A DNA stretch of 64,000 nucleotides from assembly GCA_976551045.1 (NCBI GenBank), contig CDPCPM010000037.1, positions 8,060,001 through 8,124,000 on the forward strand, given 5' to 3'. Position 1 is the stretch's first letter. Each line of letters begins with the position of its first letter. Below are positions 1,053-47,830 of this stretch, piece after piece. The DNA comes from Glaucostegus cemiculus (Eukaryota). Made by a program: the position numbers and the translations under genes. The notes beneath the pieces are model-generated. The model saw only the letters and a program-made list of their open reading frames with translations, was not told where the DNA came from and searched no databases.

Positions 1053-1228
1053 GGTAGTAAGCTGCTGGAGAACTCAGAGGGTCAGGTAGCAGCTATGGAG
1101 GCAAAGGGATAGTCGATGTTTTGGGTTGAGACCCTGCACCAGTCCTGATGTAGCATCTTGATCTGAAATGTGAATATCCTTATTCATTGCTCCAGATCTC
1201 AGCATCTGGAGTCCTTTGTGTCTCCATA
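1053..1228. mobile_element. Short palindromic Penelope-like element derivative with two degenerate hammerhead motifs
   Basis: gctgctggagaactcag...gaccctgcacc / agtcctgatg...gaaa...agcatctggagtcctttgtgtctc; 11-bp TSD TTCTCTACCAA at 1042-1052 and 1229-1239. Confidence 0.7.
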
Positions 1229-1339
1229 TTCTCTACCAACCTGCCCCTCTCCACTCTGACTTCTGACGATAAAGGTTCACAGCTTCGTGCTGAAGAGCAT
1301 GGTGCATTTTCATTATCTTGAGAACTATCACTTGGCTAG

Positions 1340-1975
1340 CATGCATTTGAACAAAATTCATGGTCTAATGAGCAGTAGTGATCCCTGCCCTCCCATATGC
1401 TTGACTACCAAGGCCAGGTACCTTGGGGCTCCAGTGTTGTCTCCAATTCAGCGGAAAGACAAGTGAACCAATGTCAGTGTCTTCCCTGAGGCTGATGTCC
1501 CTGTATTGAGGGCCTTGTATTGAGGGCCTAGTTGCACTCAGTTGTTTCTGAATGACGATGCGAACCTTTGACAAAGGGCAGGCCATGTTATCCACAAGCC
1601 AGACATCAGACTCTTGAAACAGACACTCTACTCTGACCTCAATGTTGTGCTCACATACTTGAAGGAATGCAACACTCCCAATTGGGAATCTCTGGCCCAT
1701 GACTGCTCAAAGTGGAGAAGGAACATTCAGGATGATGGAGTCCATGCACTGGGAGCACACAGGGACCCTGCAATGAGATGGAAGGAGCAGACAACCTCAT
1801 AAACTACAACCCCCCCATCCCCTCAGCCACCACCAGCCACCCCAGCCCCCGGCCCCTGTGGAAGAGTTTGTAATTTCCAAATTGGCCTCTGTTGCCATCT
1901 CAGAGGCCAAATAACTAGAGTGAAAATAAATTATCCTCAATCCCCAGGGACTGCCAAAAGAAAAAAGATAACCGT
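1340..1975 (+). mobile_element. RTE-clade LINE 3' fragment (decayed)
   Basis: Reads as AVVIPAL.YA...TNVSV...KQTLYS...WESLAHDCSKWRRNIQ, typical of the RTE C-terminus; stops and frameshifts present. Confidence 0.7.
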
Positions 1976-2081
1976 GATGAAAGTTCAAAAATACTTCATT
2001 GTCTGCAACGGCACTTTGGGTGATCTGAGACTGGGAAAGGTGCTAATATAAATATACATCTTGATAACATAATGGAGCAAG

Positions 2082-2489
2082 TGTCATGATTCTGAGTACT
2101 GGCCCTTGATTTGGCTCCTTGGATGCCTCATTGTACAGCACATGGATTCCATGCTGGACTGATTGCATAATGACACACACCTGAGCCCCATCAGGGGCCT
2201 AGCATAAGTACCTGGGTTTCTCTAGCACTAGTTGCCAGAGGATTGGTCAACCTTGAAGATTCAGTTTGGTTCCTAGCTGCTTAGTGTGGTCTACTCCAGA
2301 GCAGTCCTGTGTTTTCTATTCCTGCTTGAAGATTCAGCTTGTGTTGGGATTACTACTCAGATCTCTGAGGCAAGATTTCCTTCCAGTGTTGCCTGTGTCC
2401 GGTCCTGAGGAAGTATCCTGATTCCAGTCTTGTACCAGTGTGCTGCATTTGGGTCTCTCTGATCTTGTTCTTCAATCAACATTGTGACC
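2082..2489 (+). mobile_element. Solo LTR, copy 1 (408 bp), probably Gypsy
   Basis: Begins TGTCATGAT, ends ATTGTGACC; 5-bp TSD GCAAG (2077-2081 and 2490-2494); aligns along its length with 11210-11594 and the reverse complement of 53050-53458. Confidence 0.85.
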
Positions 2490-2571
2490 GCAAGAGTTTC
2501 AAAATATTTTATGAGCTTTGAATAAGGACCTTTTGTTTAACTAGGTTACTTTTTTTGCCCATCTTATTTGC

Positions 2572-3235
2572 TAAGAAGAATGAGAGGGGATCTTATAGAA
2601 ACATGTAAAATTATGAAATGGATGTATATGATAGAGGCAGGAAAGTTGTTTCCACTAGTAGGTGAGACTAGAACAAGGGGACATAGCGTCAAGTTTCGGG
2701 GGAATAGATTTGGGACAGATGAGATTAGGGTAGGCATGGTATTGTAGTGGTTGCTGTAATGCTATCACAGCACCAGTGACTGGGGTTCAATTCTGGACAC
2801 TGTCTATAAGGAGTTTGTATGTTCTCCCTGTGTCTGCGTGGGTTTCCTCCCAGATTCCAAAGGTGTATGGGTTAGGAAGTTGTGGGCATGATATGTTGGC
2901 ACTGTAAGCATGGTGACACTTGTGGGCTGTCCCCCAGAACACTACACAAAAAGATGTGTTTTGAATAAAGGTATCTTAAATTGCTTTTCCCAGAGAGTAG
3001 TGAATCTGTGGAATTCTCTGCCCAGGGAAATTAAGCAGTAGAGGCTACATCATTAAATATATTTAAGACAGTTAGATTTTTGGATAATAGAGAAATTAAA
3101 GGTTCTGGGGGAAAAGGCAGGTCAGTGGATCTGAGTCCACAGCCAGATCAGCCATGAGTTTACTGAATGGTGAAGCAGGCTCAACAAGCCAGATGGCCTA
3201 CTCCTGCTCCTATTTCTTATGCTCTTATGTTCTTA
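2572..3235 (+). mobile_element. CR1 LINE 3' end (ORF2 C-terminus plus 3' UTR), interrupted by a SINE
   Basis: RRMRGDLIET.KIM...LFPLVGETRTRGH...FSQRVVNLWNSLP; tail cctactcctgctcctatttcttatg(ttcttatg). Confidence 0.85.
2728..2978 (+). mobile_element. tRNA-derived V-SINE (HE1-like), Rex-type tail subfamily, nested in CR1
   Basis: Box A/B head (tagtggtt...gggttcaattc), V-domain tgcgtgggtttcctcc, tail shared with 39328-39623. Confidence 0.85.
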
Positions 3236-4904
3236 ACTCTAAGAGTCTTTCATGTCATTCATGTTATCACATATAGACAGCAGTTAAGAGTGGCAAGTTT
3301 GATTCCCTGGACGATATTGGGGAACAATCCATGTTAATACAATAATCCAATGACTTCCACAATCATTCTTCTGGTAATTGACCAGAATATTGAATATTAA
3401 ATTGAATTGAATATAAGCATGTTTTTGATATTCAGCCACTGTAATATAACTTCAGTGCCTACTAAATATAACAATGCAGGGCATAACTACTGCTCCAGCT
3501 CTTTCCATTTCATAAGCCAAAAACAGATTCCTGAAAATCATTTGCCAACTCTTCAAGAAAAAGCTGAGAGCAGATCACACAGTTTCATTCACTTTCCCAT
3601 CCTTGGGGCACATCCAACTATTACATTTCAAAGAAAAAAAGAAACATTTCATTACATTTGAGAATTGAAAATTGCTTTATGTTTTGTTTGATCACACAAA
3701 ATCATATTGTTTTTCATGTATTGTGGAAGAGACATTGTACTCGTTGGATGAACTTCATATCCTGTGTTCCAGGGCAGGAGATAGCTCTTACAAGCAGAAC
3801 TAAAAATGACATGAATTTCTGTGCAAATTTAAAACATCAAAAAAATAAAGCTATCTTTCCCTGTGATTTAGTTATATATTTATTTCTACCAGTAGAACAT
3901 TCACTTTTGAATAATCAATGTTTCATTACCATGCGAGCATAACTGGATTTTTACAAGTAAATGTAAATGATTAAATGAGAGTTTGCATTAATTCTATTTT
4001 TCATAAATTAGAGTAACTGAATTATAGTTTATTCCCAGAAGAGTCTAGTAAGATAGCCAATCATAGTATTATAAACTCACTAATAAATCCAGCCATAACT
4101 GAACAAATAATAGTGGGTCAGCTATTCTTATCGAAAGGCATCAGCTCCTTCAGTAGAATGGTGGTGCAATAATTTAAATGTGTTAAGTTCTCTTGATCAC
4201 TCAAACTTTGGGAGTGGTTCAAACCTATTGTATAAATGAGGACTATTCGAAATCAATCTATCTAAACAAAAAAAAATTAAGCAAGTGAAAAAAATTGGTC
4301 AACTTTGATAATGGCTTTTAGTTAACTTAGTGCTAAGTGCTACTTCCTGCATTCACATACTGAATTGGAGTTGTCTGCACCCTGCTAAGTGCATTGTTCC
4401 TTGATCATACTTACACAAAACTTCCTCATTCTGAAGTAATGTGTTGCCATCATGTTTAAACTTGGTGTGTGAGTAGACTTATTTATGCATGATTTATTAT
4501 CACAAGAGGTTCAAGAATAATTGCAATGAGAAATGATGCAAGGTCAGAATGCCTGAACATTTGCTGAGTGTCTCCACAACTAGTTCTGTCAGATGCTGTC
4601 TGAACTCTCCAGCCCCTCCTCCTCCTCACAACAGGCCATCATTGCCATGATAATCCCAAAGGCACATACAGACAGGCGCAGAGGGACCTGTCTGCACATA
4701 CCCATTCATACATACGTGCACAGGTGCCCTTGCTCACTGCTTCTGCCCTGCTTCCCACCCCACCCTTTCCTTCATCTCTCTCACTCAGTGAGAGTGATCA
4801 TGACTTCCTCCCTTCCTCCCTTAGTTATCCTTCCTCCAACCTCTACATCCCTCTGCCCCTCTCTTGCACCCTGACACTTTGTTACCTTCTCCCTTCCTTT
4901 CACT

Positions 4905-5115
4905 GGGTACCAAAGGGTGGTGGGTATATGGAATGAGCTGCAGAGGCAGGTACAATTACAGTGTTTAAAAGGACACGTACATGGATTGGAAAGGTTTAGA
5001 GGGATATGAGCCAAACGCAGGCACCTGGGATTAGCTTGAATAAACATCTTGGTTGGCGTGGACGAATTGGGCCAAAAGGCTACTTCCATACTATATAGCT
5101 CTGTGAATCCATGAC
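4905..5115 (+). mobile_element. CR1 3' end fragment
   Basis: gtggtgggtatatggaatgagctg...gcaggtacaattacagtgtttaaaagg...gggccaaaaggc...ctctgtgaatccatga. Confidence 0.7.
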
Positions 5116-5622
5116 ACGTTCCACCCCTTCTTTTTCCATGACCCTTTTTCTTCACCCTCTCTGCCTTCCATCCAGCACCTCACATCCTCCTCATCTACCT
5201 GCACCCAAATCCCTACCGTGCATTATCTCGCTCTGAGAACACCTGCCCCCACCACTGGCAGCTTCCCCTCAGCAATAGGCCTGGCCAGAACGTCTGATAA
5301 AATATTTGATGCATGGTCTTGTCATGAGAGAGACAAGTGAGAGACATGTACAAGATCTCATGGCAATAATCCCTGTCCTCACAATGGCACCCGTTACATT
5401 CTACCATCACCTGAGTGAGACAGTACAAGGAATACTACAAGGAAAGATACAAGAGACTACAGCAGGTACCAATGTCCACCACCCAATCTGCTCTGTTAAC
5501 TTCATCAACCTGACCCAAAACAATGGCAGCAACAGAAATATTGTTGCCTGAAAATGTTAAAGATATCGAGAATCTCACCAAGAGAGTTCTTTTCAGGCAG
5601 TACTTCACAAACAGCCTGATCG

Positions 5623-5998
5623 CTATTGGTATTGGCATTGGTTTATTATTGTCACTTGTACTGAGGTACAGTGAAAAAGTTGTCTTGCACACCGATCATA
5701 CAGGTCAATTCATTACACAGTGCAGTTACATTGAGTTAGTATGGCGTGCATTGAGATAGTACAGGTAAAAACAATAACAGTACAGAGTAAAGTGTCACCG
5801 CTACGGAGGAAGTGCATTGCAGGTAGACAATAAGGTGCAAAGTCACAACAAAGTAGATTGTGAGGTCAGATCCATCTCATCGGAAAAGGGGACTGTTCAA
5901 TAGTCTTATCACCATGGGATAGAAGCTGTCCTTGAGCCTGGTGGTATGTGCCCTCAGGCTCCTGTATCTTCTGCCTGATGGGAAAGGAGAGAAGAGAG
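5623..5998 (-). mobile_element. Rex1/Babar-type LINE 3' end
   Basis: Minus strand encodes LFSPFPSGRRYRSLRAHTTRLKDSFYPMVIRLLN*; 3' UTR ends gtgacaataataaa(ccaata)n. Confidence 0.75.
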
Positions 5999-10244: not shown

Positions 10245-11745
10245 TAACAGCTTGTATTTATATAGTGTGTTTTAAAGAGTACAACATCTGAAGGCACTTC
10301 ACTGGAGCATAACCAGATTTAAACCTACCTGAAGCCAAAGGAGGAGAATTTGTGTTTTGCTCAGTTAATCTCAGTCGTGGAGATATGTTTTTAAAAGTAT
10401 CTTAAAGAAGCGGAGGTGGGAGATTAGGGAGGGAAGTTCAGAACTTAAAGCCTAACCGCTTGAAGGCATAGTCACTAATGGTGCTGAGCCCCAATGAGTG
10501 AAAGAAGTGAGGAGCATACAATTAGGTGGAATGGAAGAATGCAAAGTTCCTGGATTACTGCAGGACTGGAGGAAGTTACAGAGATGTTCAGAAGAGGCAA
10601 GGCTAAGGAGGGAATTAAACATGAGAACCTTTTAATTGAAGCATTGGCAGTGTAGAAACCAACATAGGTTAGCAAGTATGGGATTGATGATTGATTGGAA
10701 CTTGGCACAAATGGGGCTACGGGCAACAGGGTTTTGGATGAATTTTAGTTATGGAGGATGGAAGATGGAGGCTAGTCAGCAGAGAACTGGAATAATTCAA
10801 GCAGAGTTAGCCTAAGTATGAATGGGGGTTTCAGCAGCAGATGGGCTGAAGCAAAGGTGGAGACGATAGATATTTTGGAGCTAGCAGTATGCCACCCAAG
10901 TTTGGAGCAGATGGAAAATATTTTTGATTGTTAGGTCTTGACGATTGAAAAGACAAAGTTATGATGCACAGGGTCATGGGAACAGAGAAGTCAGGGAGAT
11001 GGTGTTGCAGGACTGGTAGAGGTAAGCAAAATAGACAAGTGAGTTAATGGTAGAACTTAAACTGGGGGATGAAAACTTTAAATTGTTGAAGGACGGGGAG
11101 CAGTTTTATGTTGGTAAGAATAAGGGAGATTGACACACACGCACACCATGAAATGGACAGGATATGGGCAGCAAGAAATTTTGCTTGAGTCTCTTTGATA
11201 GGGTGTTAGTGTCATGATTCTGAGTACTGGCCCTTGATTTGGCTCCTTGGATGCCTCGTTGTACAGCACATGGATTCCATGCTGGACTGATTGCATAATG
11301 ACACACACCTGAGCCTAGCATAAGTACCTGGGTTTCTGTTGCACTAGTTGCCAGAGTATTGGTCAACCTTTGGCTCTTTGCTGCTTAGAGTGGTCTACTC
11401 TAGAGCAGTCCTGCATTCTCTAGTCCTGCTTGAAGATTCAGTTTGTGTTGGGATTACTACTCAGATCTCCGAGGCAAGATTTCTTCCAGTTGCTGCCTGT
11501 GTTTGGTCCTGAACAAGTATCCTGACTCCAGTCTTGTACCAGTGTGCCACATTTGGGTTCTCTGTGAGCTTGCTCTTCAATCAACATTGTGACAGTTAGA
11601 ACTCTACCCTGAAAATGGCAAGGACGTAGATAAGTGTGGGTGGATGAGTGTGGAACAGAGATGGGTGATGTTATAAAAGTAGAAGTAGGCAGATTTAGAA
11701 TGGTGGATGTGGGTAAAGTTATCCTGAGAATGCAAAGTAGCCATT
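10245..11745 (-). mobile_element. Old L2 LINE fragment, interrupted by solo LTR copy 2
   Basis: Starts with an inverted L2-type tail (cttgtatttatatag...aaggcacttcac) followed by purine-rich antisense L2 ORF2 sequence. Confidence 0.5.
11210..11594 (+). mobile_element. Solo LTR, copy 2 (385 bp)
   Basis: TGTCATGAT...ATTGTGACA; perfect 5-bp TSD GTTAG (11205-11209 and 11595-11599). Confidence 0.9.
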
Positions 11746-14044: not shown

Positions 14045-16698
14045 TAGAAAGAAGGGACAAAGGGTCAGAAGAAGTGGATGGAGCTAAGAATGGCAAGGGT
14101 AAAAGGACAATAATAGCAGTTATATATAGGCCCCCTAACAGCAGCTGGGATATGTACTATAAGTTACAGTTAGAAATAGAAAAAGTGTGTCAGAGAGACA
14201 ATGTCAAGATAATTATGGGGGATTTTAATGTGAAGGTGGATTGCGAAAGCCAGGAAGGCAGTGGATCTCAGGAGAATGAGTTTGTGGAATGTCTACAGGA
14301 TGGCTTTTTGGAGCAACTTGTTGATGAGCCCACCAGGGCATCGGCTGTTTTGGATTGAGTGCTGTGTAATGAACCAAAGGTGATTAGGGAACTAAAGGTA
14401 AAAGAACCATTAGGAACTAGCGATCACAATATGATTGAGTTCAGTTTCAAATTTGAAAAGGAGAAGCTGATAGCAGGTGCATCAATATTTCAGTGGAACA
14501 AAGGAAATTACAGTGGCACATGAGAGGAGCTGGCCCAGATTGATTGGAAAAGTAGCTAGTTGGAGGGATGGCAGAGCAGAACTGGATGGAATTCCTACAA
14601 TAAATAAGGAAAATGCAGGATAGATATATTCTGAGAAAAAAGGTTATGATTGGAAAAATAGCACATATGTGGATAACAAGAGATGTTAAGGCTAAAATAA
14701 AAGCATAAGGGAAGGCATACAAGGAAGCAAAAATTAGTGGGAAAACAGAAGACTGGGAAGCTTTTAATAACTTACAGAAAGAAACTAAGAAGGTCATTAG
14801 GAAAGAAAAGATGAATTATGAAAGGAAATTGGCAGAAAACATTCAAAAGGAGTTTTTTCAAATATATGAAGAGTAAAAGAGAGACACAGGTTGATATAGG
14901 ACCAATTGAAAACGGTGTAAGAGAGATTATAATGGATAACAAAAGAGATAGCAGAGGAAGTAAATGAGTATTTTGGATCAGTCTTCACTGTGGAGGACAT
15001 CAGCAATATACTTGATAGTCAGGGGTCTCGGGATAGAACTGAGTTCAGTCAAGATTACTGGAGAGAAGGTGCTCAGGAAGCTAAATGAGCTAAAGACAGA
15101 TAAGTCTCCCGGACCAGATGAAGTGCACCCTCGGATTCTGAAGGAAGTGGCTTTAGAGATTGCGGAGGCGTTGGTGATCATTTTCCAGGTATCAATAGAC
15201 TCTGGCATGGTTCAGAAGGACTGAAGGGTCGCAAATGTAGTTCTGCTGTATAAGAAAGGTGGGAGGCAGCATAAAGGAAATCACAGACCTATTAGTCTGA
15301 CATTGGTGGTTGGAAAGTTATTGGACTCGATCCTCAAGGATGAGATTATGGAATACCTAGAGCTGCAAGGCAAGATAGGTCCAAGCCAGCATGGTTTCAT
15401 GAAGGGAAGATCCTGCCTGACCAACCTATTGGAGTTTTTTGAGGAAATCTCAGGTAGAGTGGATAAGGGAGAGGCTGTGGATGTTGTGTATTTAGACTTT
15501 CAAAAGGCCTTCGACAAGGTGCCACACAAGAGGCTGATTAATAAGATGAGAGCTCATGAAATTACAGGTAGGATATTAGAAAGGGTGGAGTATTGGCTGG
15601 TAGGCAGAAAACAAAGGGTAGGGATAAAGGGATCCTGTTCCGGTTGGCTACCAGTTACCAGTGGTGTTCTGCAGGGGACAGTATCGGGGCCGCTTCTTTT
15701 TACATTGTACATTAATGATTTGGATGATGGAATAAATGGTTTTGTGGCTAAGTTTGCAGATGACACCAAAATAGGAGTAGGAGTAGGGAGTATTGAAGAA
15801 ACAGGAAGGTTGTAGAGAGACTTAGATAGTTTAGGAGTATGGGCAAAGAAATGGCAGATGAGATTCAATATTGAGAAATGTGCAGTTGGATACTTTGGAA
15901 AAGGAAATAAATGGGCAGATTATTATCTAGATAGGGAGAAAATTCAAAGTACAGAAGTGCAAAGGGACTCAGGGGTCCTCGTGCAGGATACCCTGAAGGT
16001 TAACCAGCAGGTCAGATCAGTGGTAAAAAAAAACGAATGATATGTTGGCATTCATTTCAAGAAGTATAACGTATAAAAGTAAGGAAGTGTTGATGAGGCT
16101 CTGTGGGGCACTGGTGAGGCCTCATTTGGAATACTGTGTGCAGTTTTGGGCCCCTTATCTTAGGAAGGATGTGCTGATGTTGGAGAGGGTTCAGAAAAGA
16201 TTTACGAGGATGATTCCTGGAATGAGAGGGCTTACTTATGAACTTTTGTTGGCAATTGGACTGTACTCACTCGAGTACAGAAGAATGAGAGGGGACCTCA
16301 TAGAAACATTTAGAATGTTGAAAGGAATAGACAGAGTAGATGTGGCTAAACTGTTTCCCTTGTTGGGTGAGTCCAGGACTAGGAGGTACAGTCTTAGAAT
16401 TAGAGGGTACCGGTTTAAAACAGAAATGAGAAGAAATTTCTTTAGCCAGTGGGTTGTAGAGTTATGGAATTCTGTGCCACATACAGCTGTGGAGGCCTAA
16501 TCATTTGGAGTGTTTAAGGACGAGATTGATAGGTATCTAATTCATCAATGTATCAAGGGATATAGGGATAAGGCTAGATAGGAATTGTTTTCCTATCCTA
16601 AATTGGGGCTAGATAGGAATAGTTTTAGTTTAGCTCATGGAGCAGATTCGATGGGCCAAATGGCTTACTTTTGCTCCTTTGTCTTGTGATCTTGTGAT
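14045..16698 (+). mobile_element. 5'-truncated CR1 LINE (part of the APE endonuclease, RT and 3' UTR), inactivated by stops and frameshifts
   Basis: APE motifs VIYRPPNS, IIMGDFN, SDH; RT motifs KSPGPDEVHPRILKE, QHGFMKGRSCLTNLLEFFE, YLDFQKAFDKVPH, GVLQGTVSGPLLF, FADDTK; C-terminal VRPHLEYCVQFWAPY; tail (tcttgtga)n. Confidence 0.95.
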
Positions 16699-18915: not shown

Positions 18916-19871
18916 ATCAATCAGCAGAGAAGGGGTGGACTGGGCTGGTGGAGATGATCATCAAGGATGAAAACTTAACGAAAAAATCTACCTTGAGGAA
19001 AGAGTATATCATGCACCTCTAAGTGGTGGTCTGGATGGTGTTAAATGGCTGGAAGTTACAATATTAAATGTTTAAAAAATATTGTTAAAACAGCATTGTG
19101 AATCAAGCACATTCTGTTTGTGAAAGTTGCATTAAGATCTAGATCTTCAATTGCAAGATTCAAGGAACAGCATTGTTAGGGTTCACTAGGTAATGCCAAG
19201 CTGAAAGTGAAATTTTCAGTTTCAGCATGCATTCCTTATTGAAGTCCCACAGGTTCAATCTCTACAGTCAATTCTTAAAGGGAAATGCCACAAAGCATGC
19301 AACACTTTTCTAACTACTTGTGAGTGTTGTTGATGAACGAGTGGATGAACAAGTGGATAGCAGGGGTTGGGAGTGCACTCCTGTGCAGTCAGAGGGATTT
19401 TGAAAGGCTGCTGAAGGACAAGGCCCTTAGGGGGCATGATCTTTGTACAAGAGGGTCAGGAACCCTCCAGCCAAACATCTCTGGCAGGACATTGCTAAGG
19501 ATGTCTCTGTAAGGACATGAGTGCAGTATCTGAATCCTGGCTCTTTGGGGAAACCATTCATGCAGGAAAATGACAGTGTCCACTTTCCTGTTTCTGGGAA
19601 CTGAAAGAAGAAAATGATGAAGTCTTCCCTATATCGTGGAGGTTGAGTGACTCTACTCTCTCCACCCCCAATGAAGCAGTGCCTAGCCAACTATGAGATG
19701 TGACACAGATTGGCAGCAGGTGGGTGGAATGACCCCGAGGCTCAGTGTGGACAAAACGTGCACTCGATGGAACTTTGAATCATGCAGATTTCAGGGGAAA
19801 TGCCTTTAGTAAAACCTAGTTGTTCTGTGAATAAATAAAAATGTTTGCTTTTCAGAATAGTGAGAGTGAGA

Positions 19872-20150
19872 TAAAAACAGAAAACTCTAGAAGTACTCTT
19901 CAACCTGAAATGTAAACTCAAGAGACGCAAGAGACTGCAGATGCTGGAATCTGAAGCAACAAACAATCTGCTGGAGGAACTCGGCAGGTCGAGCAGCATC
20001 TGTGGGAGGAAAGAAGTTGCTAACATTTTGGGTCAAAACCCTGCATCAGGATTGTAAACTCTGTTTCTCTTGCCACAGGTGCTGCCTGACCTGCCGAGGA
20101 TTTCTAGCCTTTTCTACTTTTATTTTAGATTTCCAGCAACTGCTGTGTTT
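19872..20150. mobile_element. Nested Penelope-like derivatives: a younger copy (19920-20052) inside an older copy
   Basis: Younger copy gagacgcaagagactgcagatgctggaatc...ggtcaaaaccctgcatcagga is flanked by the 9-bp TSD TGTAAACTC (19911-19919, 20053-20061); removing it restores caacctgaaatgtaaactctgtttctc...gctgcctgacctg. Confidence 0.75.
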
Positions 20151-23100
20151 TATTTTGGTTTTCACTTAGTGAGATTAAGAACCTTGCTGTAGATAAATTT
20201 GGCAAGTGGCAGTACTGCTGATGTCATTTGACAGATTTTTAAGGCCAAACAAAACTCCTTCCTACACATTAGGTTCGAATTTCCTGATGGTCACCAAGAC
20301 AGCTAGAATCGTATGTTAAGTTCCTTTGCTCTCAGAAACCAATCTTTTATAGATTTGTGCAAACAAATTTTCAGGCTAACATTTTCAATTAATACAGGAG
20401 CAGATCTCAACCATCTGGTTAAGACTTGCTCCAATGCTCATGAGTAATGCTGCTTGCAGGCCTCTTATGAGCATTAGAACTTCATTTGGTTGAAGTCAAT
20501 TGAATGTTATGTGCTGATTGATGTTCCTGTCTGTGCATTGCCCAGGGACCTCTGTGCACATGCCTATCGTATAGCTGGAGGATGTGGATAAAGTATCCCA
20601 AACCCAATCAAGTATCATGTAAAATTCACTCACATAGCACAAAGAAACTTGGTGGTATGAAATCAGATTTCTTATTGATATATGTAGGATAGCCAAACAA
20701 AATACCTGGAGATTAACATAATAGAATCATTTTTGGATCCTGATGGATTATGATGCATAAATTTACTGAGGAGTTTTTTTTATACTTCAATAATGACCAC
20801 ACTTCAAATATGCTTAATTGTTTCAAAGCTTCTTCAGTTTGTGAAAGGTGCTATATAATTGCAAAACTAAGTTTTTTTTGCAGATAGTGCAGTATAGAAG
20901 GCATCCCAGGAGTGCATGGGAACAGTCAGTGCTGGCTTAATCAAACTCAGGAGTGAGAGCTTCAGTGGTACAGAGTCTGTACCATCTTCCAGTATGATTC
21001 ACTGATCTTAAGACAGGGACAAAAGGGATTTGTATGAAAATACATTTTATGTTACCTCTAGACTACATTCCCCTCTAATGGTACAGTACTTAGATAATTC
21101 TTCATTTCCAGGTAATTCCTAGTTTGCTGAATTTCTTGCAAGTCTTGGTCACAATGGAAATTTATTTTTCCCCAGTGTCAATGCACTTGAAGAATGGGCT
21201 GTGTCAGTACGACGAAATGAATTGATCACTTTGAACAGAGAGAGGGATGTGAGTTCAAATTATGCAAGTCAGAGGCAGGGTGAAGAAATGTTGGGGGTGG
21301 GAGTGAGAGAAAAATCAATGTACTTTTATCTGAGATTATTTTGTTAAAATTGTTTTATATTCTAGTCAAAAATAATCCTAACAGCAGGAAAGGATGTTCT
21401 ATAAAGTGATTTATGACCTTCAAAATGAATAACCCAGCAAAAGGGCCATATCACCAGAAACACTGCACTCGAATGCAGCATTCCAAGCACTACATTAAAT
21501 GCATGGCTGAATTCTCATGAGGTTACATTATACAGAAAATGGTGGAAAACAATGAAAGACTGAGTGAAAGGCAAAACATTTGAATACATCTGCTTCGATC
21601 TTTTCTTCCTTTGTCATTCTGTCACTGTCACACCAACCTAGACTTGTAGAGTTGTATAAAAAATTGCATAAGGGCTTTAAAAATAAATTAAGAGTATGAA
21701 GAATACATACCGATTGCATAACTTGGAACAGAATGAAAGAAGAGTTCTGAATAGAAACAAATGTCTGATTAAAATACCAATTGTAGTAGTTGCTAAATGG
21801 ACAGTTTGAGGGAAAACATTAAATTTATAGAACATAAGTAAATCACAAGATTAGGCAAATAAATATAGTCAAAAGTGAAAATAACTTCCTGAACTTAAAA
21901 CACATTTCTTGAAACATAATCACGTGGAAAATTATTTTCTATTTGTGTTATGCTGACAGAGAGAGTTAGCCCCAGTTTTTATTAGTCCACTGACTTTTAA
22001 AAATGTACAGGACCATATTTAAGACTAAAGTATTCGCCCTGATATGTATTAATGTATACCTTTGTATTTAGATTGCTTTTTATAGAGATTTTTGTAGACT
22101 TTTTTTCCCAAATTCATTAAAAAATATTAAAAAAGCACAATTGTGCCCGTAGCTAAGCAGCCTCACTTACAACCTTAATTTATTTTAATTATGACTCTAC
22201 ATCAGCACAGCTGCTAAACAGGCATAAGTCACACAAATCTCCAGTTTCCACGTAATCAGCTTCTCATTCAACCCACATGTTCCGGCCTATCTTGAATATC
22301 TAGCGATGCAAGTACACCCATCCCCCCACTGGCACACCGAGTACAAGCCATCAGGGGGTGACTTCATTGTTCCTCAAATAATGCAGAACTTCTTCAATAG
22401 CGCATTTAAGTACTTAAATACAGAGACCTTTATAACTTCTATAAAGTATTCTGCTTCCACAAAACAAGCTTTAACCTTAAAAGAAATCAAGAATGCGTGT
22501 TTAGGAAATTTATCATCACCTTTCAACTAATTGCGAACGAATCAGTTTTTTTACTGGAAATGATCAGGAGGTTGGTCTTTTTAATTTGCACCATTTCATG
22601 TGGTGAAGTGTTAGAATTCTGCACATGTTTCAATGCCACTATTGTAAGCAAGAAATAATGCAGTAGTGTATTAGATATCAACAGGACCAGTGAGTTTCAC
22701 TGCAATTGCTTCTTGAACTTTTGTATCTATGAATACACAGGCAATTTCCCTTCTTCTTAAAAGTAGTGATGGTGCAAAAATGAAGGTGGTGGGCCCCAAA
22801 TGATTGATCACCACAAACAAACTGCAGGAGGGAGGAAATTATTCCAGAGTTACTGTAACAGAAACATCTAGCAGCTGATTGCAAATGTAAAATAAGCATC
22901 AGTAAGCAAAATGTCAGAGAGTGTTATTACATATTCCTCTGCAGAAATGTACTTTTTAAAGTACTTAGTTAATTAACACCTAATCTTTCCTCTCTTTCCA
23001 TTAAACAATGAGGCATCCCGCATTACCAGGCATGCTCATTTATTGCTCAAGTTAAGTAATTAAGAACGTCAGACATGTAAAAACGTAATTTGCAAACTAA

Positions 23101-24398: not shown

Positions 24399-24745
24399 TT
24401 GGTATGTAGCAGGTCTTTATCATCAAAGTTAACTAATTTTTGGATTTACCCTTGTATCCTTTTTTTATCAAAGCTGTAACATTTGCAAATCTCTAATCTT
24501 TTTGAGAGATTATGACCAGTACCTTTGCAATTCTACCATTCTTGCCTCAGCAGCTTGGGTTGCAACCAAATCAGGCTACGTGTGTGTCTCAAATATAGCA
24601 GGTCCTTCTCGAGCATCTGCTTAACCGACGAACTATTAAGCACCTTGTTATCAATTTTTTAGCCTAACCTGTGTTTAAGAACTGAAATTTCTTTTTATCT
24701 ACCTGCCTCTTTAAACTCTCCTTAATACAATTTATATTTTGCAGC

Positions 24746-24823
24746 AACAAATAATCTGCTGGAGGAACTCAGTAGGTCATGAAGCATCTGTGGGAATTGT
24801 CGACATTTCAGGATCAAAACCTG
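24746..24823. mobile_element. Truncated Penelope-like derivative
   Basis: aatctgctggaggaactcagtaggtc...gtcgacatttcagg; 11-bp TSD TATTTTGCAGC (24735-24745, 24824-24834). Confidence 0.7.
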
Positions 24824-25074
24824 TATTTTGCAGCTTTTATTTCACTTTATGTGTATCAATTAAATCTAATTTCCTGCTTTACACTTCCTTGTTTGGACTC
24901 TGATGTCAGGGAAGATTCTTCAATTAGATTGGTTGAAGAGATTTGCTATTCTCGCTGCAGATGCCCTCAAGAGGACATCAAATGCCAGATATCAGCAAAT
25001 TTGTGCTCTCTCGCTTGCCAAAACCTTGTAGGCAGCTGTCAGCAAGGTAATTTATTTACTTAACTACCTATTTA

Positions 25075-25741: not shown

Positions 25742-25989
25742 TTTTTTTTTAAATTTTATTTACAGCATGGTAACAGGCCCTTTTGGACCAACGAGTCCGA
25801 GCCGCCCATTTTAAACCCCCAAATTAACCTACCCGTACGTCTTTTAGAGTGTGGGAGGAAACCGGAGCACCTGGAGGAAACCTACGCAGACACGGGAGAA
25901 CGTACAAACTCCTTACAGTCAGCGCTGGGAATCGAACCCCAATCGGTGGCACTGTAACAGTGTCACGCTAACCGCTATGCTATCGTGAC
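25742..25989 (-). mobile_element. tRNA-derived V-SINE, CR1-tail/poly(A) subfamily
   Basis: Reverse complement closely matches 39012-39264; poly(T) at 25742; V-domain ggaggaaaccggagcacc. Confidence 0.9.
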
Positions 25990-26004
25990 GAATATCAGGA
26001 TGAA

Positions 26005-26195
26005 ATTAAAGCAGGAGATGCTGGAAACACTAAGCAGCATCTGTAGAAAAAGAAACTGTCAAGGCTGTCAAGGTTTCAGGTCTGGGACTCTTCATCAGAA
26101 CTGGGTAAGAGAGAGAACAAGCTAATCTTAGGTATTTTCATTTTACGCTTTCCCATTTTGTTTTAATTTCAGATTTCCAGAATCTGCAGTTTTTA
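26005..26195. mobile_element. Penelope-like derivative with hammerhead core on the minus strand (26065-26103)
   Basis: atgctggaaacactaagcagcatctgtag...; minus strand cagtt-CTGATGA-agagtcccagacct-GAAA-cctt-gacag; inverted end ttcagatttccagaatctgcag. Confidence 0.65.
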
Positions 26196-32556: not shown

Positions 32557-33416
32557 TTTTATTTTAAGATGGCGGCACACACATTTGCAGCGGCCTCTCC
32601 CAGGTCTGTAGTGCTTGTGTTTCTTTGTTAGTCTTTTAGTGTTTTTTTTTGCTTTTTTTTTGTGTGTTCTTTGTTCCTGATGTTTGTGTGCTTGGTGTTC
32701 GTTTTTGTGGAGTCGTTGTCTGTGCTGACGGCTCCGACGGCTCGTCGGAGTTCATCGAAGGCGACAGCGTATCAAAGGCCCTGGAGCCTCGTGGTGGCGT
32801 TGGGATGCGGGCGGTGAGGGGGCTGCTCGGGCCATAGGTGGTTGGCCTGCGGGGCTGGAGGTCGTCGGACTGCGGAGCCGGTCTGCGGGGCTGGAGGTCG
32901 TCGGACTGCGGAGCTGGAATTCGGGGCTGGAGGTCGTCGGACTGCGGGGCCGGAGGCGAAGGAGCCGGGGATCGTCGGCCTGCGGGGCCAGAGGTCGTCG
33001 GCCTGCGGAGCCGGAGGCAAAGGAGCCGGAGGTCGTCAGACTGCGGGGCCGGAGGCGAAGGAGCCGGAGGTGGTCGGACTGCGGGGCCGGAGGTGGTCGG
33101 ACTGCGGGGCCGGAGGTGGTCGGACTGCGGGGCCGGAGGCGAAGGAGCCGGAGGTGGTCGGACTGCGGGGCCGGAGGTGGTCGGACTGTGGGCCGGAGGT
33201 TGTTGATGGACTGTGGGCCCCGAGGTTGTAGGACTGCAGGGGTTGGAGGTAGTCGTCAGTGCGGGGTGAGGCTGGGGGCTGTTAATGTTTTGACGTTTTT
33301 GTCCCGTTGTCCTTTATTGTCTTTAATGTCTTTTGCACATTGGCCTGTGGAGAAACAATATCTCGCCTTCATGTATACGTGAAAGTGACAATAAATTAAT
33401 TCTGATTCTGATTCTG
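32557..33416 (+). mobile_element. Young 860-bp non-autonomous retroelement with 5' YY1 motif, internal GC-rich minisatellite and Rex/Babar-type tail
   Basis: AAGATGGCGGC at 32566-32576; ends gtgacaataaattaa(ttctga)3; 8-bp TSD AAGAATAT (32549-32556, 33417-33424). Confidence 0.75.
32845..33245 (+). repeat. GC-rich minisatellite: 23-bp unit gccggaggt(g/c)gtcggactgcggg interspersed with 15-bp gccggaggcgaagga
   Basis: Directly visible tandem units, most homogeneous at 33063-33200. Confidence 0.9.
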
Positions 33417-35211: not shown

Positions 35212-35512
35212 ACAAGACAAGACAAGATACCTTTATTAGTCACGTGTACTTTGAAACACAGTGAAATGCATCTTCCATGTAGAGTGTTCTGGGGACAGCC
35301 TGCAAGTGTCGCCACACTTCCGGCGCCAACATAGCATGCCCACAACTTCCTAACCTGTACATCTTTGGAATATGGAAGGAAACCAGAGCACCCGGAGGAA
35401 ACCCACTCAGACACAGGGAGAACGTGCAAACTCGTCACAGACAGCAGCCAGAATTGAACCTGGGTCACTGGCGCTGTAGTAGTGTTACGCTAACCACTAC
35501 ACTACACTACCC
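35212..35512 (-). mobile_element. tRNA-derived V-SINE, Rex-type tail subfamily
   Basis: Reverse complement of the 39328-39623 type; tail acaagacaagacaagatacctttattagtcac. Confidence 0.9.
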
Positions 35513-39011: not shown

Positions 39012-39264
39012 GGGTGGCACGATAGCCTAGCGGTTAGCATGATGCTGTTACAGCGCCAGCGATCGGGGTTCGATTCTCGTCGCTGACTGTAAGGAGTTTG
39101 TACATTCTCCCATGTCTGCGTGGGTTTCCTCCGGGTGCTCTGGTTCCTCCCACATTCTAAAAGACATACGGGTAGGTTAGTTTGGGGGTTTAAAATGGGC
39201 GGCGCAGACTCATTGGGCCGAAAAGGCCTGTTACCACGCTGTAAATAAAACTTAAAAAAAAAAA
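39012..39264 (+). mobile_element. tRNA-derived V-SINE, CR1-tail/poly(A) subfamily
   Basis: Box A (tagcctagcgg), box B (ggttcgattc), V-domain tgcgtgggtttcctccgggtgctctggttcctcccaca, tail gggccgaaaaggcctgttaccacgctgtaaataaaac plus A11. Confidence 0.9.
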
Positions 39265-39327
39265 TTTGAATCCACAACCTCCAAGTTCCTAGATGGCATC
39301 TGATACCTGGAAAAATATCAATTAATA

Positions 39328-39623
39328 GCGGACACATTAGCATAGTGGTCACCGTAATGCTTTACAGCGCCAGTGACCCGAGTTCAATTCTGGCTGCTGT
39401 CTGTAAGGAATTTGTACGTTCTCCCAGTGTCTGCATGGGTTTCCTCCGGGTGCTCCAGTTTCCTCCCACATACCAAAGATGTATGTGTTAGGAAGTTGTG
39501 GGCATGCTATGTTGGCGCCAGAACCATAGCGACACTTACGGGCTGCCCCCAGAACACACTACACAAAAAATGCATTTCACTGTGTTCTTCGATGTACATG
39601 TGACTAATAAAGAGATCTCTTAT
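39328..39623 (+). mobile_element. tRNA-derived V-SINE, Rex-type tail subfamily
   Basis: Same head and V-domain, then ggaagttgtgggcatgc...catttcactgtg...gtacatgtgactaataaagagatctctta. Confidence 0.9.
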
Positions 39624-39712
39624 ACTGTGAAGATTTATCAGCTTAGAAAAGAATTTGTAGATTATTAAAAGAATATTTTCTGGATTCTGATTGACTAACA
39701 TTTTTGATTACA

Positions 39713-39834
39713 ACACACAAAATACTGGAGGAACTCAGCAGGTCAGGCAGCATCTGTGGAGGGAAATAAACAGTCAACATTTCAGGTCGAGACCCTTCAT
39801 CAGGACTGGAAAGGAAGAGGGCAGAAGCCAGAAT
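39713..39834 (-). mobile_element. Penelope-like element terminal fragment
   Basis: acacacaaaatactggaggaactcagcaggtcaggcagcatctgtggagggaaataaacagtcaacatttcaggtcgagacccttcatcaggactggaaagg. Confidence 0.75.
39771..39808 (-). ncRNA. Minimal type I hammerhead ribozyme motif
   Basis: Minus strand: CAGUC (stem I)-CUGAUGA-AGGGUCUCGACCU (stem II)-GAAA-UG-UU (predicted cleavage)-GACUG (stem I'); conserved core intact. Confidence 0.7.
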
Positions 39835-40093
39835 CTTCGATTACAAATTGGACATTAATGTTCAAATAACTCCCAAAAGAAATTTCAACAGATTTATATA
39901 TATCACAATAAATATGTATAAGCACAGTTAAAAATGTAACATTATTGTTACCGATTTTGGTCTTTTTGCATATTTGTAAGTTGTCTAGAAATTCCATTGC
40001 ATGACAAAGTGTTTTTAGGTGCTACCTGATGGTGAAATCTGGAAATCTGGAAATCAATGAGTAAAATCATCAACAACTGTGTGGACATTGTGG

Positions 40094-42801: not shown

Positions 42802-43904
42802 TGCAGCTAAACAGATTATTAGCCAACACACTAATAAAATGCACTACTGGAGGAGGCGCGCTGTGAGTTTTGAAATACTACACTGAACTAGGCTAGACTG
42901 AATCTTAAAATTGCCCAGCATGTGTAAAGTCTGTTGCTAGAGATCACAGGGAAAAAAACAATGATATACGGCATTAATATATCAAATGGTGACTCTCTTT
43001 TTATACAAAATCATTACTTGGAAAAGCTTCAAAGGCTGTGATAGCTGACATTTATATCTGGTTACTAAATTAACCTCTGCCAGAGGTCACAGTATTTACT
43101 TTCCATTTGCCAATAGTGGTCATGTGGAATTAAGCTTGATTGTTTTCATGCTTTCTCACTCATTATTTTATATAATAGTTACTAGTGTATAATATTTTTG
43201 CAATAAGTAAATATATCTAAGTAATATGACTTAATATAACTCAAAGCTCTCCAACTGACAATTACCACACAACTTAGCACAGAAGTGTCTGATATCTGTT
43301 ATCTAACTATAATGGCCAGGAGCATTGTGTCTTAGTCAAAACCCGTAAGATCTCTGTCACATACAGGGATCTGTATTTAATAATTCTCGATACAAAGCTG
43401 TATAAATCCCAACAAGACTTTTCACTTTTACGGGACTGGAAATAAATTTTGACCACATTAAATCACTGCTTTTCTTTATTAACATTAAAGTTAGTTCCCC
43501 ATTAAAGCAGAAAAAGGATCTTTCCTTTCAAAGTTAGGAAGGATGGCAACAGCTATTTGCTCAAAAAATTATGTTCTCATCTAATGAATGGGTGACTACA
43601 TAAATTAGAAATATCCACACACACAGCAAATCCTCTCATCAGTAAAACAATTAATATTCTGTAAGATAAACATGTAAGGAGGATTTAAAGAGCTATCTGG
43701 TTTGAGTACATTAAAGAATTTTTGTGTGCGATCTTCTGACCTTAGGTGCCTTTGGTCAGAATCCAAATTAAATTTAAAATACATGAATATTAAGGAACTT
43801 CAGTTCAGACTAAAAGACTAAAAGATATAAATGCTTCAGTGATGTATAATTAATGATCGTTAATGTGACTGTTTAATGACAGTTTTTTTTACTGGGCATT
43901 TTCT

Positions 43905-44720
43905 GAGACTTTTTAGGCACTCCCTTGGGATAGAGGATGACTTGTTTCTCTGGGTCCAGTGCAGGATCTACAGATTCCATGGTAGGTAGGATAGGTGGAG
44001 ATTGACTGATAAATGGTTGGGCTGATGGATTGTATTATGGTCCTTTGCTGCCTGCATGCACTTCCATCAGAGAGGTTCAGAATGCTCAGTACCTTTCTGT
44101 ATACTTCTCTAAGAGGTTGGAGGACCTTGGTAATGGGATTGCTGATGTGGATGATGTGGCCACCTGATTGGAACCAGCTAATGTGTGATCAGAGCCTTGA
44201 TGCTGGCAGGGTTTTGACCTGAGAGAGATGCTGACCTTGCACTGCCCATCAGTGGAATTAGAGGATTCTTCAGACAGCTTTGGCTAAACTCCTCCAGTGC
44301 TTTGCAATGCCTTCTGTTGGTAGTCCATGTCTCAGAAGCAGATAGGACAGGGATCCCTGATGTTTAGTAGACTGTGAGATTGGTAACAAATTGAGGGATT
44401 ACTCTTCAAACACTCTTTTTCACAGCTTGGTTAAGGCTGCATTGAAGCACGAGAGACAATGGAGGATTTTGTCCTCAATATCTGCCTTCGTTAAGATAAG
44501 GAAATTGATATGTAAAGTGGGCCAGGGTCTCACATTGTTAGGGGGTGTCATTGTGCACCAGGAGCTAGTTGGGAAAGAATGTTTGTCTTCTGGATGTTTG
44601 GTGTGAGGCCCATCATCTTGACATCTTTGGTGAAGGAATCAGTGACAGTTCAGAGTTTACCTTTCAGTTGTGTACACACACAAGGATCTTCTGTTTACTA
44701 TAACTTTGACAGCGAGGGCT
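43905..44720 (-). mobile_element. RTE LINE 3' part (decayed)
   Basis: Tail taggcactcccttgggatagaggatgacttg and antisense RTE ORF remnants (cagggatccctga...tcttcaaacactct...aatatctgcc...gtgtgaggccc). Confidence 0.6.
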
Positions 44721-44988
44721 TTTCTAAGTCACAGTTATTTAGTTATCCATTTAAATCAATGATGTTGGGTTGCTAGTTAATGGAGTTCATGGAACTTCTC
44801 TTCAAGACATGACCATTAAGGAGTTCCTTTAGTGATTTCAACAGTGTCTATATAAAAATGCTTCAGTTAATGTGTTTGTCATGTAATCCAAATTGTAAAC
44901 CTAATTGCCAGCTGATTGCTTGGTTGAACTTACAAACCATCAAAACCAGTTTAAGCAGTTAGCCTTTCTACTTAGAGAACTTTGTTAA

Positions 44989-45294
44989 AAGATAGATAAG
45001 ATATTTATTAGTCACAGGTACATTGAAACACACAGTGAAATACATCTTTTTGTGTTACTGAGAATGTGCTGGGAGCAGCCTGCAAGTTTCGCCTCTCTTC
45101 CAGCGTCAACATGGCATTGCCCACATCTCCTAACCTGTATGTCTTTGGAATGTGGGAGGAAACCAAAGTACCCGGAGGAAACCCATGCAGACATGGGAAG
45201 AATGCACAAACTCCTTACAGAAAACAGCAGGAATTGTACCCAGGTCACTGGCACCGTAATAGTGTTACGCTAACCGCTACACTACCACACTGCC
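44989..45294 (-). mobile_element. tRNA-derived V-SINE, Rex-type tail subfamily
   Basis: agatagataagatatttattagtcac...tgtgggaggaaacc...cccggaggaaacccatgcagacatggg...acgctaaccgctacactacc. Confidence 0.9.
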
Positions 45295-45469
45295 GTTATC
45301 ATTCAGTACTGAGTAAGGTCACTGTGATTGGTTTATGGGGACTTGCAAGTGTATTGACAGCCAGTGATATGACCAGTTCCAATATCATCTGAAGCTATCT
45401 CCCTGTGAGAAATTTTGCTCAACATCTTCAATGCCAAAAGCTTTTCCAAGGGGCTTGGCTGAAAATGTC

Positions 45470-45840
45470 TAAATTCAAAGTTGAGTTGATTGTCGTATGC
45501 ATCAGTACATGTATGCACAGGTACAAAGAAAAGCTTACTTGCAGCAGCATCACAGGACATAGCATAACATAAGCAGCATTCACAAGAAAAACATAAATTA
45601 AACATAAATTATACACAACCTTTACAAAAAAAACACAATCAGAACAAAAAAAATACAAAGTCTATTTTTGTGCAAAGTGATCAGAGTGGTCACAACCAAC
45701 CATTGTGGTGATTAGGGTTTAGCTGGTTGGTTCGAGAACTGAATAGTTGATGGGAAGTAGCTGTTCTTGAACCTGGTGGTGTGGGACTTGAGGCTTCTGT
45801 ACCTCCTGCCCGCTGGGAGCTGTGAAAAGATGGCACGGCC
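45470..45840 (-). mobile_element. Rex1/Babar-type 3' end
   Basis: gaagtagctgttcttgaacctggtggtgtgggacttgaggcttctgtacctcctgcc is antisense to GRRYRSLKSHTTRFKNSYF; homologous to 53525-53948. Confidence 0.8.
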
Positions 45841-46419
45841 TCAGGATTCAATTTCCAGCTCATTTTACAAGCTCAGCTTAGTTCAATGATAGATTGTTTG
45901 GGCATAACATATAACAGCAGGACTTGAGTATTATTTGAGAAAAAAAAAATCAATTCAATGATTTTGATCTTCTTTCTGGCCTCTCTAAAACTCATCTTCA
46001 ACTTTAGTAGGGTTATTCAAGAAATTCTGCCATTTACTCAGATTCATGTGTTTACAAGAAGCTTTAAATCAGCCTATACACATGGATGCATGGATTTGTT
46101 TCTTTGCTGCAACACAACTGAAAATTATTTTGTTTCCCCGGAGTGGAATGATATTGTGATCAGTTCTGAAAGTAATCACTACCCTCTGGAAATTTTGCTG
46201 GGCATTTTTGGTCACAGTTCACATTTGCATGCCCAATGCAGTTTCTGTGTCAGTGGCACACCAGCATGATGTCATTCCCTGCCAAACATTCCTCTTGTAG
46301 TGTGTTGTTTTGAGAGCAACTACCATTAGGTTCTCCATGACCAATCAAGTCTTCAGGATACAACTCTGGATTAGACTGCTGAGAATGTAAGTTTCATACT
46401 TGCCTTTTATTGTTGAGGC

Positions 46420-46790
46420 ATAGAGTCAGCACAGCACAGAATCAGGTCCCTTGGTCCACCCTGTCCATGCTGACTATAAGTTCCTATCTATTTTAATCCC
46501 ATTTATCAGCACTTGGTTTGCAGTCTTCTATGCCTTAGTGATTCAAGTGATTGTCTAGATACTAATTAAATATTGTGATGGTGCCTGTCTCTACAATCCA
46601 CTCAAGTGCGATCCAGATTCCAACCATCCATTGGTTAAGTCTGTTTTTCACAGCTCCCCTCTGTCCCTTATCCCAGATCCTAAACCTATGCCTTCTAGTT
46701 TTAAACAACTCAGTTATAGGGAAGTATTTTTTAGTATCAATCCTATTTATGCCCCTCAATTTTGTACAGCTCTATTGAGTCCCTCCCTAA
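46420..46790 (-). mobile_element. CR1 3' end fragment
   Basis: Minus strand MRGINRIDTKKYFP...KTRRHRFRI...QWMVGIWIAL. Confidence 0.75.
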
Positions 46791-47483
46791 CATAGCAGCA
46801 AACCCCCACTAACCCTTCCTACTCCACACCACACTCTCCGATCTGACACACAACCTACCAACTGGCCGGGTTCCCTGACCCCCAATGATGGAGGGAATTT
46901 GGTGAGAGATTCCAGTTCCAGTCAGCACAAGTATGTGCTTGTCAAAGTGAGAATAAAATTAGTCAAAATGTTCAGCCTCATCTCCACTTCCTCCCCTGAC
47001 TGCCTCCCTACATTCTGGCAACTTCTCAACATTAATTGGCTAGTTGAATAAGGACTAGTGAAACTGAATTCTGAGAAAATGTCAGTACTCTCATGAGAAA
47101 AGGGGATAGGCTAAAAATTGCTTTCGTGGCATTGGATAATGATATCGTGATGACTCAGTGGAATACAAATCAATGAATAATGTGCAAACTGAAATAAGGT
47201 ATTAAATTAAAATATTTCTGGTCATGTTTCAATTTTTAAATTACTGCTTTAAGATGAGGATTCTGGCATTAGAAAATTCTTTTCTATTTTTTCTGTATTT
47301 TTTCCTATTTGCTTACTAAACACTGATCTTTGCTGGAAAATGCTCATATGAATTTTGAATGGACACAGGATCCAAATCATATTTAATATTGCCTTTGGTT
47401 GAATAACTTGCTGACCTTCATTCCCAAGGTTTATATTTCACAATTGTTTACCTGAGTGAGATACACACAAACATCATGACACA

Positions 47484-47830
47484 CAAGAACATAAGAAACA
47501 GAGGCAAGAGGAAACACAAGAGACTGCAGATGCTTGAATCGAAGTGAAGCACAAAATGCTGGAGGAACTTAGTGGTTCAGGCAGCATCTATGGAGGGAAA
47601 TTGACAGCCGACGTTTCGGGTCAAGACCCTTCATCTAGACCCTGAAGGGTCTCAATCTGAAACTTCAATTGTCCATTTCCCTCCACAGATGCTGCCTGAC
47701 CCAATGAGAGGCAAGAGGATGCCTTTCAGTTCTTCATACCCACTGTGCCATTCAGTCAGATCATAGCTTGTCTTTCACCTCAACACAGCTCTCCTTCACT
47801 AACCCCAAAGTCCTGGATTCCATTATTTGC
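47484..47830 (-). mobile_element. CR1 3' tail interrupted by a Penelope-like hairpin element
   Basis: caagaacataagaaacagaggcaagagga [insert] tgcctttcag...gccattcagtcagatcatagct. Confidence 0.6.
47513..47706. mobile_element. Palindromic Penelope-like derivative
   Basis: Arms 47578-47633 and 47643-47700 are inverted; 13-bp TSD AGAGGCAAGAGGA (47500-47512, 47707-47719). Confidence 0.85.

Follow-up and report, generated by a model that had tools for sequence, protein, structure and literature searches.

Short hammerhead-bearing insertions in Glaucostegus cemiculus as probable end-copies of Penelope-like elements

What kind of mobile element leaves insertions of only one or two hundred base pairs, each built around a hammerhead ribozyme motif or its flank? 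We examined this question in a 64,000-nucleotide stretch of the Glaucostegus cemiculus genome (NCBI GenBank assembly GCA_976551045.1, contig CDPCPM010000037.1, positions 8,060,001 to 8,124,000 of the forward strand; hereafter, the window). An earlier interpretation made without database searches (the sequence-only reading) recognized six such elements and assigned them to a dedicated non-autonomous system, resembling retrozymes or short interspersed nuclear elements (SINEs) and mobilized by the reverse transcriptase (RT) of a Penelope-like element (PLE). We propose, at a probability of roughly 0.75, that they are 5′-incomplete insertions of the terminal module of PLEs, made by target-primed reverse transcription.

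The six elements are present where they had been placed (E1 to E6 in Table 1), and they are related to each other, with arm-to-arm identity of 60 to 85% and blastn E values between copies down to 5e−23. E1, E4, and E6, which had been taken for single units, are each inverted structures of two arms that meet head to head and have outward-pointing 3′ ends. Together with an extra copy (E7, about 19866-20166), an older two-arm relative that contains E2 in antisense orientation, the window has seven insertions with 11 arms; four of the seven are inverted pairs (E1, E4, E6, and E7) and three are single-arm. The minus strand carries the hammerhead in E2, E3, and E5 and likewise in the left arm of each of E1, E4, and E6. 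All seven lack an open reading frame (ORF) and have 78 to about 200 bp of their own sequence, and these stumps occupy 1,067 bp, or ~1.7% of the window. None is a tandem copy, and neighboring starts of the first six elements are 1.26 to 18.9 kb apart. A profile built from the arms matched these loci only, with nothing further below an E value of 0.4 (best match in a reversed-window decoy, E = 4.8). A very degenerate possible eighth copy at 4534-4619 (+ strand; E = 0.0027 with the first profile and 0.48 with the second) was excluded from the counts.

The four exact target site duplications (TSDs) of 11, 9, 11, and 13 bp described in the sequence-only reading are borne out and exceed chance expectation. 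Among 2,000 random position pairs, in which the longest exact repeat was sought with a boundary tolerance of ±10 nt, repeats of at least 8 bp occurred in 28, of at least 9 bp in 11, of at least 11 bp in 2, and of at least 13 bp in none. The E5 duplication (8 bp exact, or 11 bp with one mismatch) had escaped that reading. Across the insertions, TSD lengths are 8, 8, 9, 11, 11, and 13 bp, of which the two 8-bp duplications are weaker (chance, 0.7 to 3%). No TSD was found for E4, whose homology begins near 26000 and whose best repeat within the same tolerance is 5 bp; a tRNA-like SINE copy beside it (25742-25990, − strand) may have hidden the duplication.

Insertion at the E2 site can be followed within the window itself. 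With E2 and one copy of its TSD deleted, the reconstructed site aligns to E5 across the junction (79% over 57 nt, E = 8e−9), which verifies the E2 TSD and places it over the predicted cleavage position of the host copy, E7. For E6, a paralogous repeat near 3.1 to 3.2 kb provides moderate evidence of an empty site (blast E = 0.008 and a gapped local alignment across the junction), and within-window comparison revealed no paralogous empty site for E1, E3, or E5. The 9-bp TSD of E2 is centered on the predicted cleavage position of the host hammerhead, a single case that could be due to chance or to a preference for the element’s own terminal repeat.

These data support insertion as short units with TSDs of varying length. 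Because 5′-truncated PLE copies also acquire TSDs, however, a short unit with a TSD is no proof of a dedicated short RNA template. The same data bear on an origin from a miniature inverted-repeat transposable element (MITE) or a fold-back DNA transposon, which would be in line with the long hairpin into which E6 folds (−49.1 kcal/mol). TSD lengths vary between 8 and 13 bp, only one arm is present in three of the seven insertions, the arms of pairs are unequal, and the junctions differ from copy to copy. Since TSDs are variable and single-arm copies exist, a MITE is excluded; with no fixed-length TSD and no terminal inverted repeats on every copy, we rejected this origin as having a negligible probability, a result that supports the sequence-only reading over a terminal inverted repeat transposon.

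The hammerhead is most complete in E5, where helix I is followed by CUGAUGA, one extra nucleotide, a 4-bp helix II, and GAAA, with no helix III (predicted fold, −10.0 kcal/mol). By this anatomy and predicted fold, E5 is recognized as a minimal type-I hammerhead, as had been suspected, although none of 12 weak Rfam matches up to an E value of 5 is a hammerhead. Cofolding of two E5 cores yielded no active dimer that could be interpreted, and its result was set aside. The same minimal architecture is described for metazoan PLEs, in which minimal hammerheads mostly occur as isolated, dispersed motifs that probably derive from truncated PLEs (PMC4209133). The window copies share with those motifs the absence of helix III, the extra nucleotide after A9, the short helix I, and the occurrence as many heterogeneous single copies, but differ in that C replaces A9 in E1, E2, and E3 and that helix II of E5 has only 4 bp (PMC4209133).

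The core had been described as variable, and this description holds in part. The C at position 9 is common to the E1 left arm, E2, and E3 and, judging from these sequences, looks like a subfamily trait of the three insertions. The CUGGUGC core is probably the decay of a single copy, and UAGAUGA sits on the E6 inversion junction and, therefore, need not be a core variant. In E4 and E5, a pyrimidine tract ending in CAG directly precedes helix I. E5 has two splice-acceptor-like tracts, in which pyrimidines are followed by YAG: one immediately before helix I (39834-39806, − strand) and one about 20 nt past the predicted cleavage site (39770-39755, − strand). An ATG comes after the second tract, and its frame is open through the arm end in E2, E5, and the E6 left arm.

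To describe the ends of the arms, we counted positions from C3 = 0, with predicted cleavage after +27. Two classes of 3′ end, separated by about 30 to 40 nt, are found: a short one at about +84 to +100 (E3, E5, and the left arm of each of E1, E4, and E7) and a long one at +119 to +129 (right arms of E1, E4, and E7, as well as E2 and the E6 left arm). Only the E6 right arm, with an early end at +69, is outside both classes (1 of 11). In all four inverted pairs, the long end is found on one arm only. The 5′ ends, placed manually at the junctions with local alignments as a check, lie at about 0, −6, −2, +6, −35, −31, +2, −4, +11, +70, and +75; two arms begin at about +65 to +75, and E4 and E5 reach 27 to 35 nt further upstream. 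Boundaries at the predicted cleavage site, to which the sequence-only reading had drawn attention, did not materialize, as none of the 11 arms begins or ends at +27. No circular permutation was seen among these arms.

Contigs from other sources extend the evidence beyond the window. We aligned contig records of four runs, which represent four organisms, to the region 39600-40050 at 80% likeness (24 runs carry part of the E5 region). In each of the four runs, 31,953 to 124,589 contig records aligned, a number that is not a copy number, and nearly all of them fell on the element, which indicates a very abundant family that is shared among the four organisms. Past the 5′ end of E5 (39834), the loose ends of 142, 1,589, and 2,031 records in the three runs for which they were listed yielded one purine-rich consensus (agreement, 0.56 to 0.67); this shared consensus marks the 5′ end of E5 as a truncation point within a longer sequence. 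In front of 39711-39713, the loose ends yielded the tail of the E2 and E6 type. In one contig, from organism B, the right flank adjoining the 5′ end of E5 is the same as in the window, and no contig among the four runs bridges an E5 empty site.

The records contain 368 joints, 15 of which were listed, and the joint counts given here refer to these 15. Opposite-strand joints account for 13 of them, with one side at −7 to +3 and the other at +36 to +51, at many different places. The remaining two lead back to the short 3′ end (39713) as partial tandems; one of these, found in nine contigs of three runs, gives a 95-nt head-to-tail unit (39807 back to 39713). The rare tandem joints suggest that tandem units may form elsewhere in the family. 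The hundreds of differing junctions and the continuation past the 5′ end of E5 argue against a fixed-length SINE. Several inversion joints (39766-39767 to 39806-39810) lie within a few nucleotides of the two strands of helix I, as predicted by fold-back self-priming of cDNA on helix I; the window’s own pairs do not have such geometry.

The 95-nt head-to-tail joint would also be compatible with monomers of non-LTR (long terminal repeat) retrozymes, which would arise as copies of linear or circular RNA that the ribozyme had processed from tandem hammerhead repeats. Like the metazoan non-LTR retrozymes, the window copies are non-coding and PLE-related, with a type-I hammerhead and long TSDs (>4 bp) (PMC7229834); moreover, a preprint reports retrozymes in one chondrichthyan and derives retrozymes from the pseudo-LTRs (pLTRs) of PLEs (bioRxiv 10.64898/2026.07.22.740005). 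What defines retrozymes, however, is the tandem arrangement of hammerhead-bearing units together with circular RNA (PMC7229834, PMC5680766, bioRxiv 10.64898/2026.07.22.740005), and the retrozymes characterized in PMC7229834 have canonical motifs, whereas the motif here is minimal, without helix III. The window copies, known here from DNA alone, are single or inverted, and their ends are away from the cleavage site: no arm starts or stops at +27, none is circularly permuted, and none of the seven widely spaced insertions is tandem. Because there is neither an end at the predicted cleavage site (0 of 11 arms) nor a tandem copy (0 of 7 insertions), membership fails, and we rejected the retrozyme monomer for these copies as very unlikely.

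Could the arms instead be tRNA-like SINEs, transcribed by RNA polymerase III (Pol III) from the opposite strand, with the hammerhead match being secondary? On the anti-hammerhead strand, six arms have a pair of A-box- and B-box-like motifs with 3, 3, 4, 4, 5, and 6 mismatches. The boxes were scored against a general consensus. Random 122-nt windows had at most 3 mismatches in 15 of 1,500 cases and at most 4 in 68 of 1,500, and three SINE-like controls had 1, 3, and 4. Given that the arms are homologous, the box likeness in six of them amounts to a single post hoc observation, and the B-like box is merely the complement of helix II. On the hammerhead strand, the boxes have 6 to 10 mismatches versus 1 to 4 in the three controls. 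Additionally, if the antisense strand were the copied one, its fixed ends would lie on the 5′ side and its ragged ends on the 3′ side, and a tail would be missing, which is the reverse of SINE retroposition; none of the 11 arms has a fixed SINE-type 5′ end or an A-rich or simple-repeat 3′ tail. ARAGORN detected no tRNA genes in the window, a result that is uninformative about SINE heads. With its end polarity reversed and its tail missing, an antisense Pol III SINE was rejected as highly improbable. As a separate and speculative point, the box-like pair at 39728-39794 (+ strand) and in the homologous arms could act as an antisense Pol III promoter.

The Penelope-like origin put forward in the sequence-only reading is supported by the tail on one arm, the inverted truncated copies, the variable TSDs, and the minimal hammerhead. 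Its dedicated retrozyme- or SINE-like system is not, given that none of the 11 arms ends at the cleavage site, there are no tandems, the 5′ ends are ragged (about −35 to +70), and the sequence extends past E5. In vitro, the protein of the anole element PAc nicks and extends both target strands, and its RT starts at two internal sites, both located downstream of the hammerhead and corresponding to the genomic tail, with ribozyme cleavage being unnecessary (PMC11167929). In PLEs, a 30- to 40-bp tail is found at one end, together with an adjacent inverted truncated copy (PMC8557442), and TSDs of 8 to 10 bp are reported, as is the nesting of one element in antisense orientation within a relative (PMC3846280); such insertion structures have been reviewed (PMC8969392).

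The source of the window copies is probably the terminal module (a pLTR with a minimal hammerhead and an optional tail) of several related endonuclease-positive PLE subfamilies. The GIY-YIG endonuclease would nick the target at staggered positions 8 to 13 bp apart, as the TSDs suggest. RT would start inside the element RNA at either of two sites, about 60 to 70 or 90 to 100 nt downstream of the ribozyme cleavage position, and would copy uncleaved RNA across the hammerhead, stopping mostly at its upstream edge. A second, inverted arm would often be added by priming from the other target strand or by fold-back, as in four of the seven insertions. The ribozyme would be carried along, and its cleavage would not be what defines the unit. 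Many stumps would probably arise when RT uses the start site close to the transcript’s 5′ end and soon runs off or switches template.

The resemblance to endonuclease-positive PLE units (Penelope/Poseidon and Neptune; PMC3846280, PMC8557442, PMC8969392, PMC11167929) includes the minimal hammerhead near the 3′ end, the two 3′-end classes, the tail on one arm, the head-to-head inversion, TSDs of about 8 to 13 bp, and antisense nesting in a relative. Unlike those units, the window copies are tiny and without an ORF, and their 5′ ends cluster at the hammerhead’s upstream edge. Putative non-autonomous PLEs of Chlamys, such as MRC1, are likewise non-coding and share their 3′ end with autonomous PLEs, but most of them have no hammerhead, and they form pLTRs as well as multimers arranged head to tail (PMC8557442). 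Apart from partial tandems, which are absent from the window and represented by two of the 15 listed joints, all DNA features that we checked match a PLE insertion unit, known here from its non-coding ends.

Several observations count against our preferred reading. No ORF for an RT or a GIY-YIG endonuclease is linked to this terminal repeat: six short motif patterns, searched in six frames of the window, gave one unconvincing match, and Pfam searches of 12 stop-free ORFs (of 30 with at least 110 amino acids in the window) identified only RVT_1 and zf-RVT, at other loci. The extension upstream of E5 is visible for 30 letters only, and the E6 TSD is not AT-rich (0.46). Furthermore, the 5′ ends are not uniformly distributed: 7 of 11 arms start between −6 and +12, an 18-nt interval along the core’s upstream edge. 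With this interval chosen post hoc and positions assigned by hand, the clustering differs from a uniform null at P = 0.004 to 0.013, or at P = 0.03 to 0.06 when one arm per insertion is counted (5 of 7). All 13 listed inversion joints also have one side at −7 to +3. Pattern scans of metagenome contigs (0 and 0) and of viral contigs (0) gave no matches.

An RNA boundary at helix I would account for the clustering of 5′ ends, either by run-off on transcripts of autonomous elements or through a separate short master. We tentatively consider, as a possibility that falls well short of the PLE end-copy reading, a defined run-off product, in which RT starts at the tail sites, close to the transcript’s 5′ end, and runs off at an RNA boundary (a start site or a splice acceptor) on the upstream edge of the uncleaved hammerhead, and units of about 95 or 130 nt, including a subfamily without A9, could be transcribed in turn and re-mobilized as a very abundant non-autonomous family. 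It is unlikely that there is a dedicated non-autonomous family of PLE ends, with short masters of about 95 or 130 nt and a defined 5′ end (a start site or a splice junction) just upstream of the hammerhead, mobilized in trans by a PLE protein. Such masters would fit the 7 of 11 clustered arm starts, the single sides of all 13 listed inversion joints and of one tandem joint at −7 to +3, and the seven insertions per 64 kb with no ORF remnant seen by the motif patterns or among the 12 ORFs searched with Pfam. They would also fit the CAG-ending pyrimidine tract before helix I in E4 and E5, where the Penelope intron of Drosophila virilis ends (PMC4209133), and the ability of pLTRs to act in trans (PMC3846280); in D. 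virilis, the Penelope intron is 46 bp from the start site (PMC2377424). Yet E4 and E5 extend 27 to 35 nt upstream, thousands of contig records run beyond E5, two arms begin at about +65 to +75, the 368 joints are heterogeneous, and run-off on transcripts of autonomous elements would give the same clustering. We retain end-copies of PLEs as the preferred explanation.

Table 1. Positions of the insertion arms, their TSDs, and the E5 hammerhead in the window
Feature	Coordinates	Strand	Description
E1 left arm	1053..1142	−	From hammerhead core (CUGGUGC) to short 3′ end
E1 right arm	1139..1228	+	Inverted copy; begins at helix I, internal deletion, long tail at end
E1 TSD	1042-1052 / 1229-1239		11 bp exact
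E7 left arm	19866..19898	−	Short 3′-end piece, older subfamily; weak on its own (nhmmer E = 0.018; the E7 left arm was part of the profile)
E7 right arm	19897..20166	+	Split by E2 (19897-19919 and 20062-about 20152); long tail
E7 candidate TSD	19858-19865 / 20167-20174		8 bp
E2	19920..20052	−	Single arm, core CUGAUGC, long tail; antisense in hammerhead of E7
E2 TSD	19911-19919 / 20053-20061		9 bp; covers predicted cleavage position of host E7
E3	24746..24823	−	Single arm, truncated within core; short 3′ end
E3 TSD	24735-24745 / 24824-24834		11 bp
E4 left arm	26000..26133	−	Core CUGAUGA, short 3′ end; about 27-35 nt of pyrimidine-rich upstream sequence
E4 right arm	26134..26195	+	Inverted tail-only piece; clear homology 26154-26193
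E5	39713..39834	−	Single arm, best preserved; 31 nt upstream of core, short 3′ end
E5 TSD	39706-39713 / 39839-39846		8 bp exact; 11 bp if one mismatch is allowed
E5 minimal type-I hammerhead (predicted)	39771..39808	−	C3 = 39803; predicted cleavage between 39776 and 39775
E6 left arm	47513..47637	−	Long tail; 5′ end at core edge
E6 right arm	47636..47706	+	Inverted copy from helix I; early stop at about +69
E6 TSD	47500-47512 / 47707-47719		13 bp exact

The window also contains other repeats. tRNA-like SINE copies, presumably HE1-like, are located at 25742-25990 (− strand), 35255-35505 (− strand), 2737-2934, 39018-39586, and 45061-45287, with good A and B boxes where tested. Remnants of long interspersed nuclear elements (LINEs) were identified by Pfam at 15225-16500 (+ strand; RVT_1, E = 5e−24) and 50535-50987 (− strand; zf-RVT, E = 2.5e−6). 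E1 splits an apparently decayed reverse-transcriptase region (900-1420), presumably of an RTE-type LINE, which its translations resemble. A young repeat of roughly 400 bp is present in three copies (2080-2454, 11208-11597, and 53047-53458; piecewise identity, 87 to 99%), and a GC-rich minisatellite at 32790-33250 has alternating 23- and 15-bp units and long stop-free frames on both strands.

The structural type is already published, and this family is a further case; we found no description of this particular family in a literature search, outside of which lay Repbase, Dfam, and the supplementary tables of the preprint. In annotation, such stumps are easily mistaken for SINEs, MITEs, or retrozymes. 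They are a natural record of PLE insertion, a reaction that is poorly understood, in a vertebrate, with two RT start sites, no ribozyme cleavage, and frequent inverted arms. The role of PLE hammerheads is still called unclear (PMC8557442). Should this clustering of 5′ ends prove to be a genome-wide feature, the template boundary in vivo would be located and the role of the PLE hammerhead would become directly testable.

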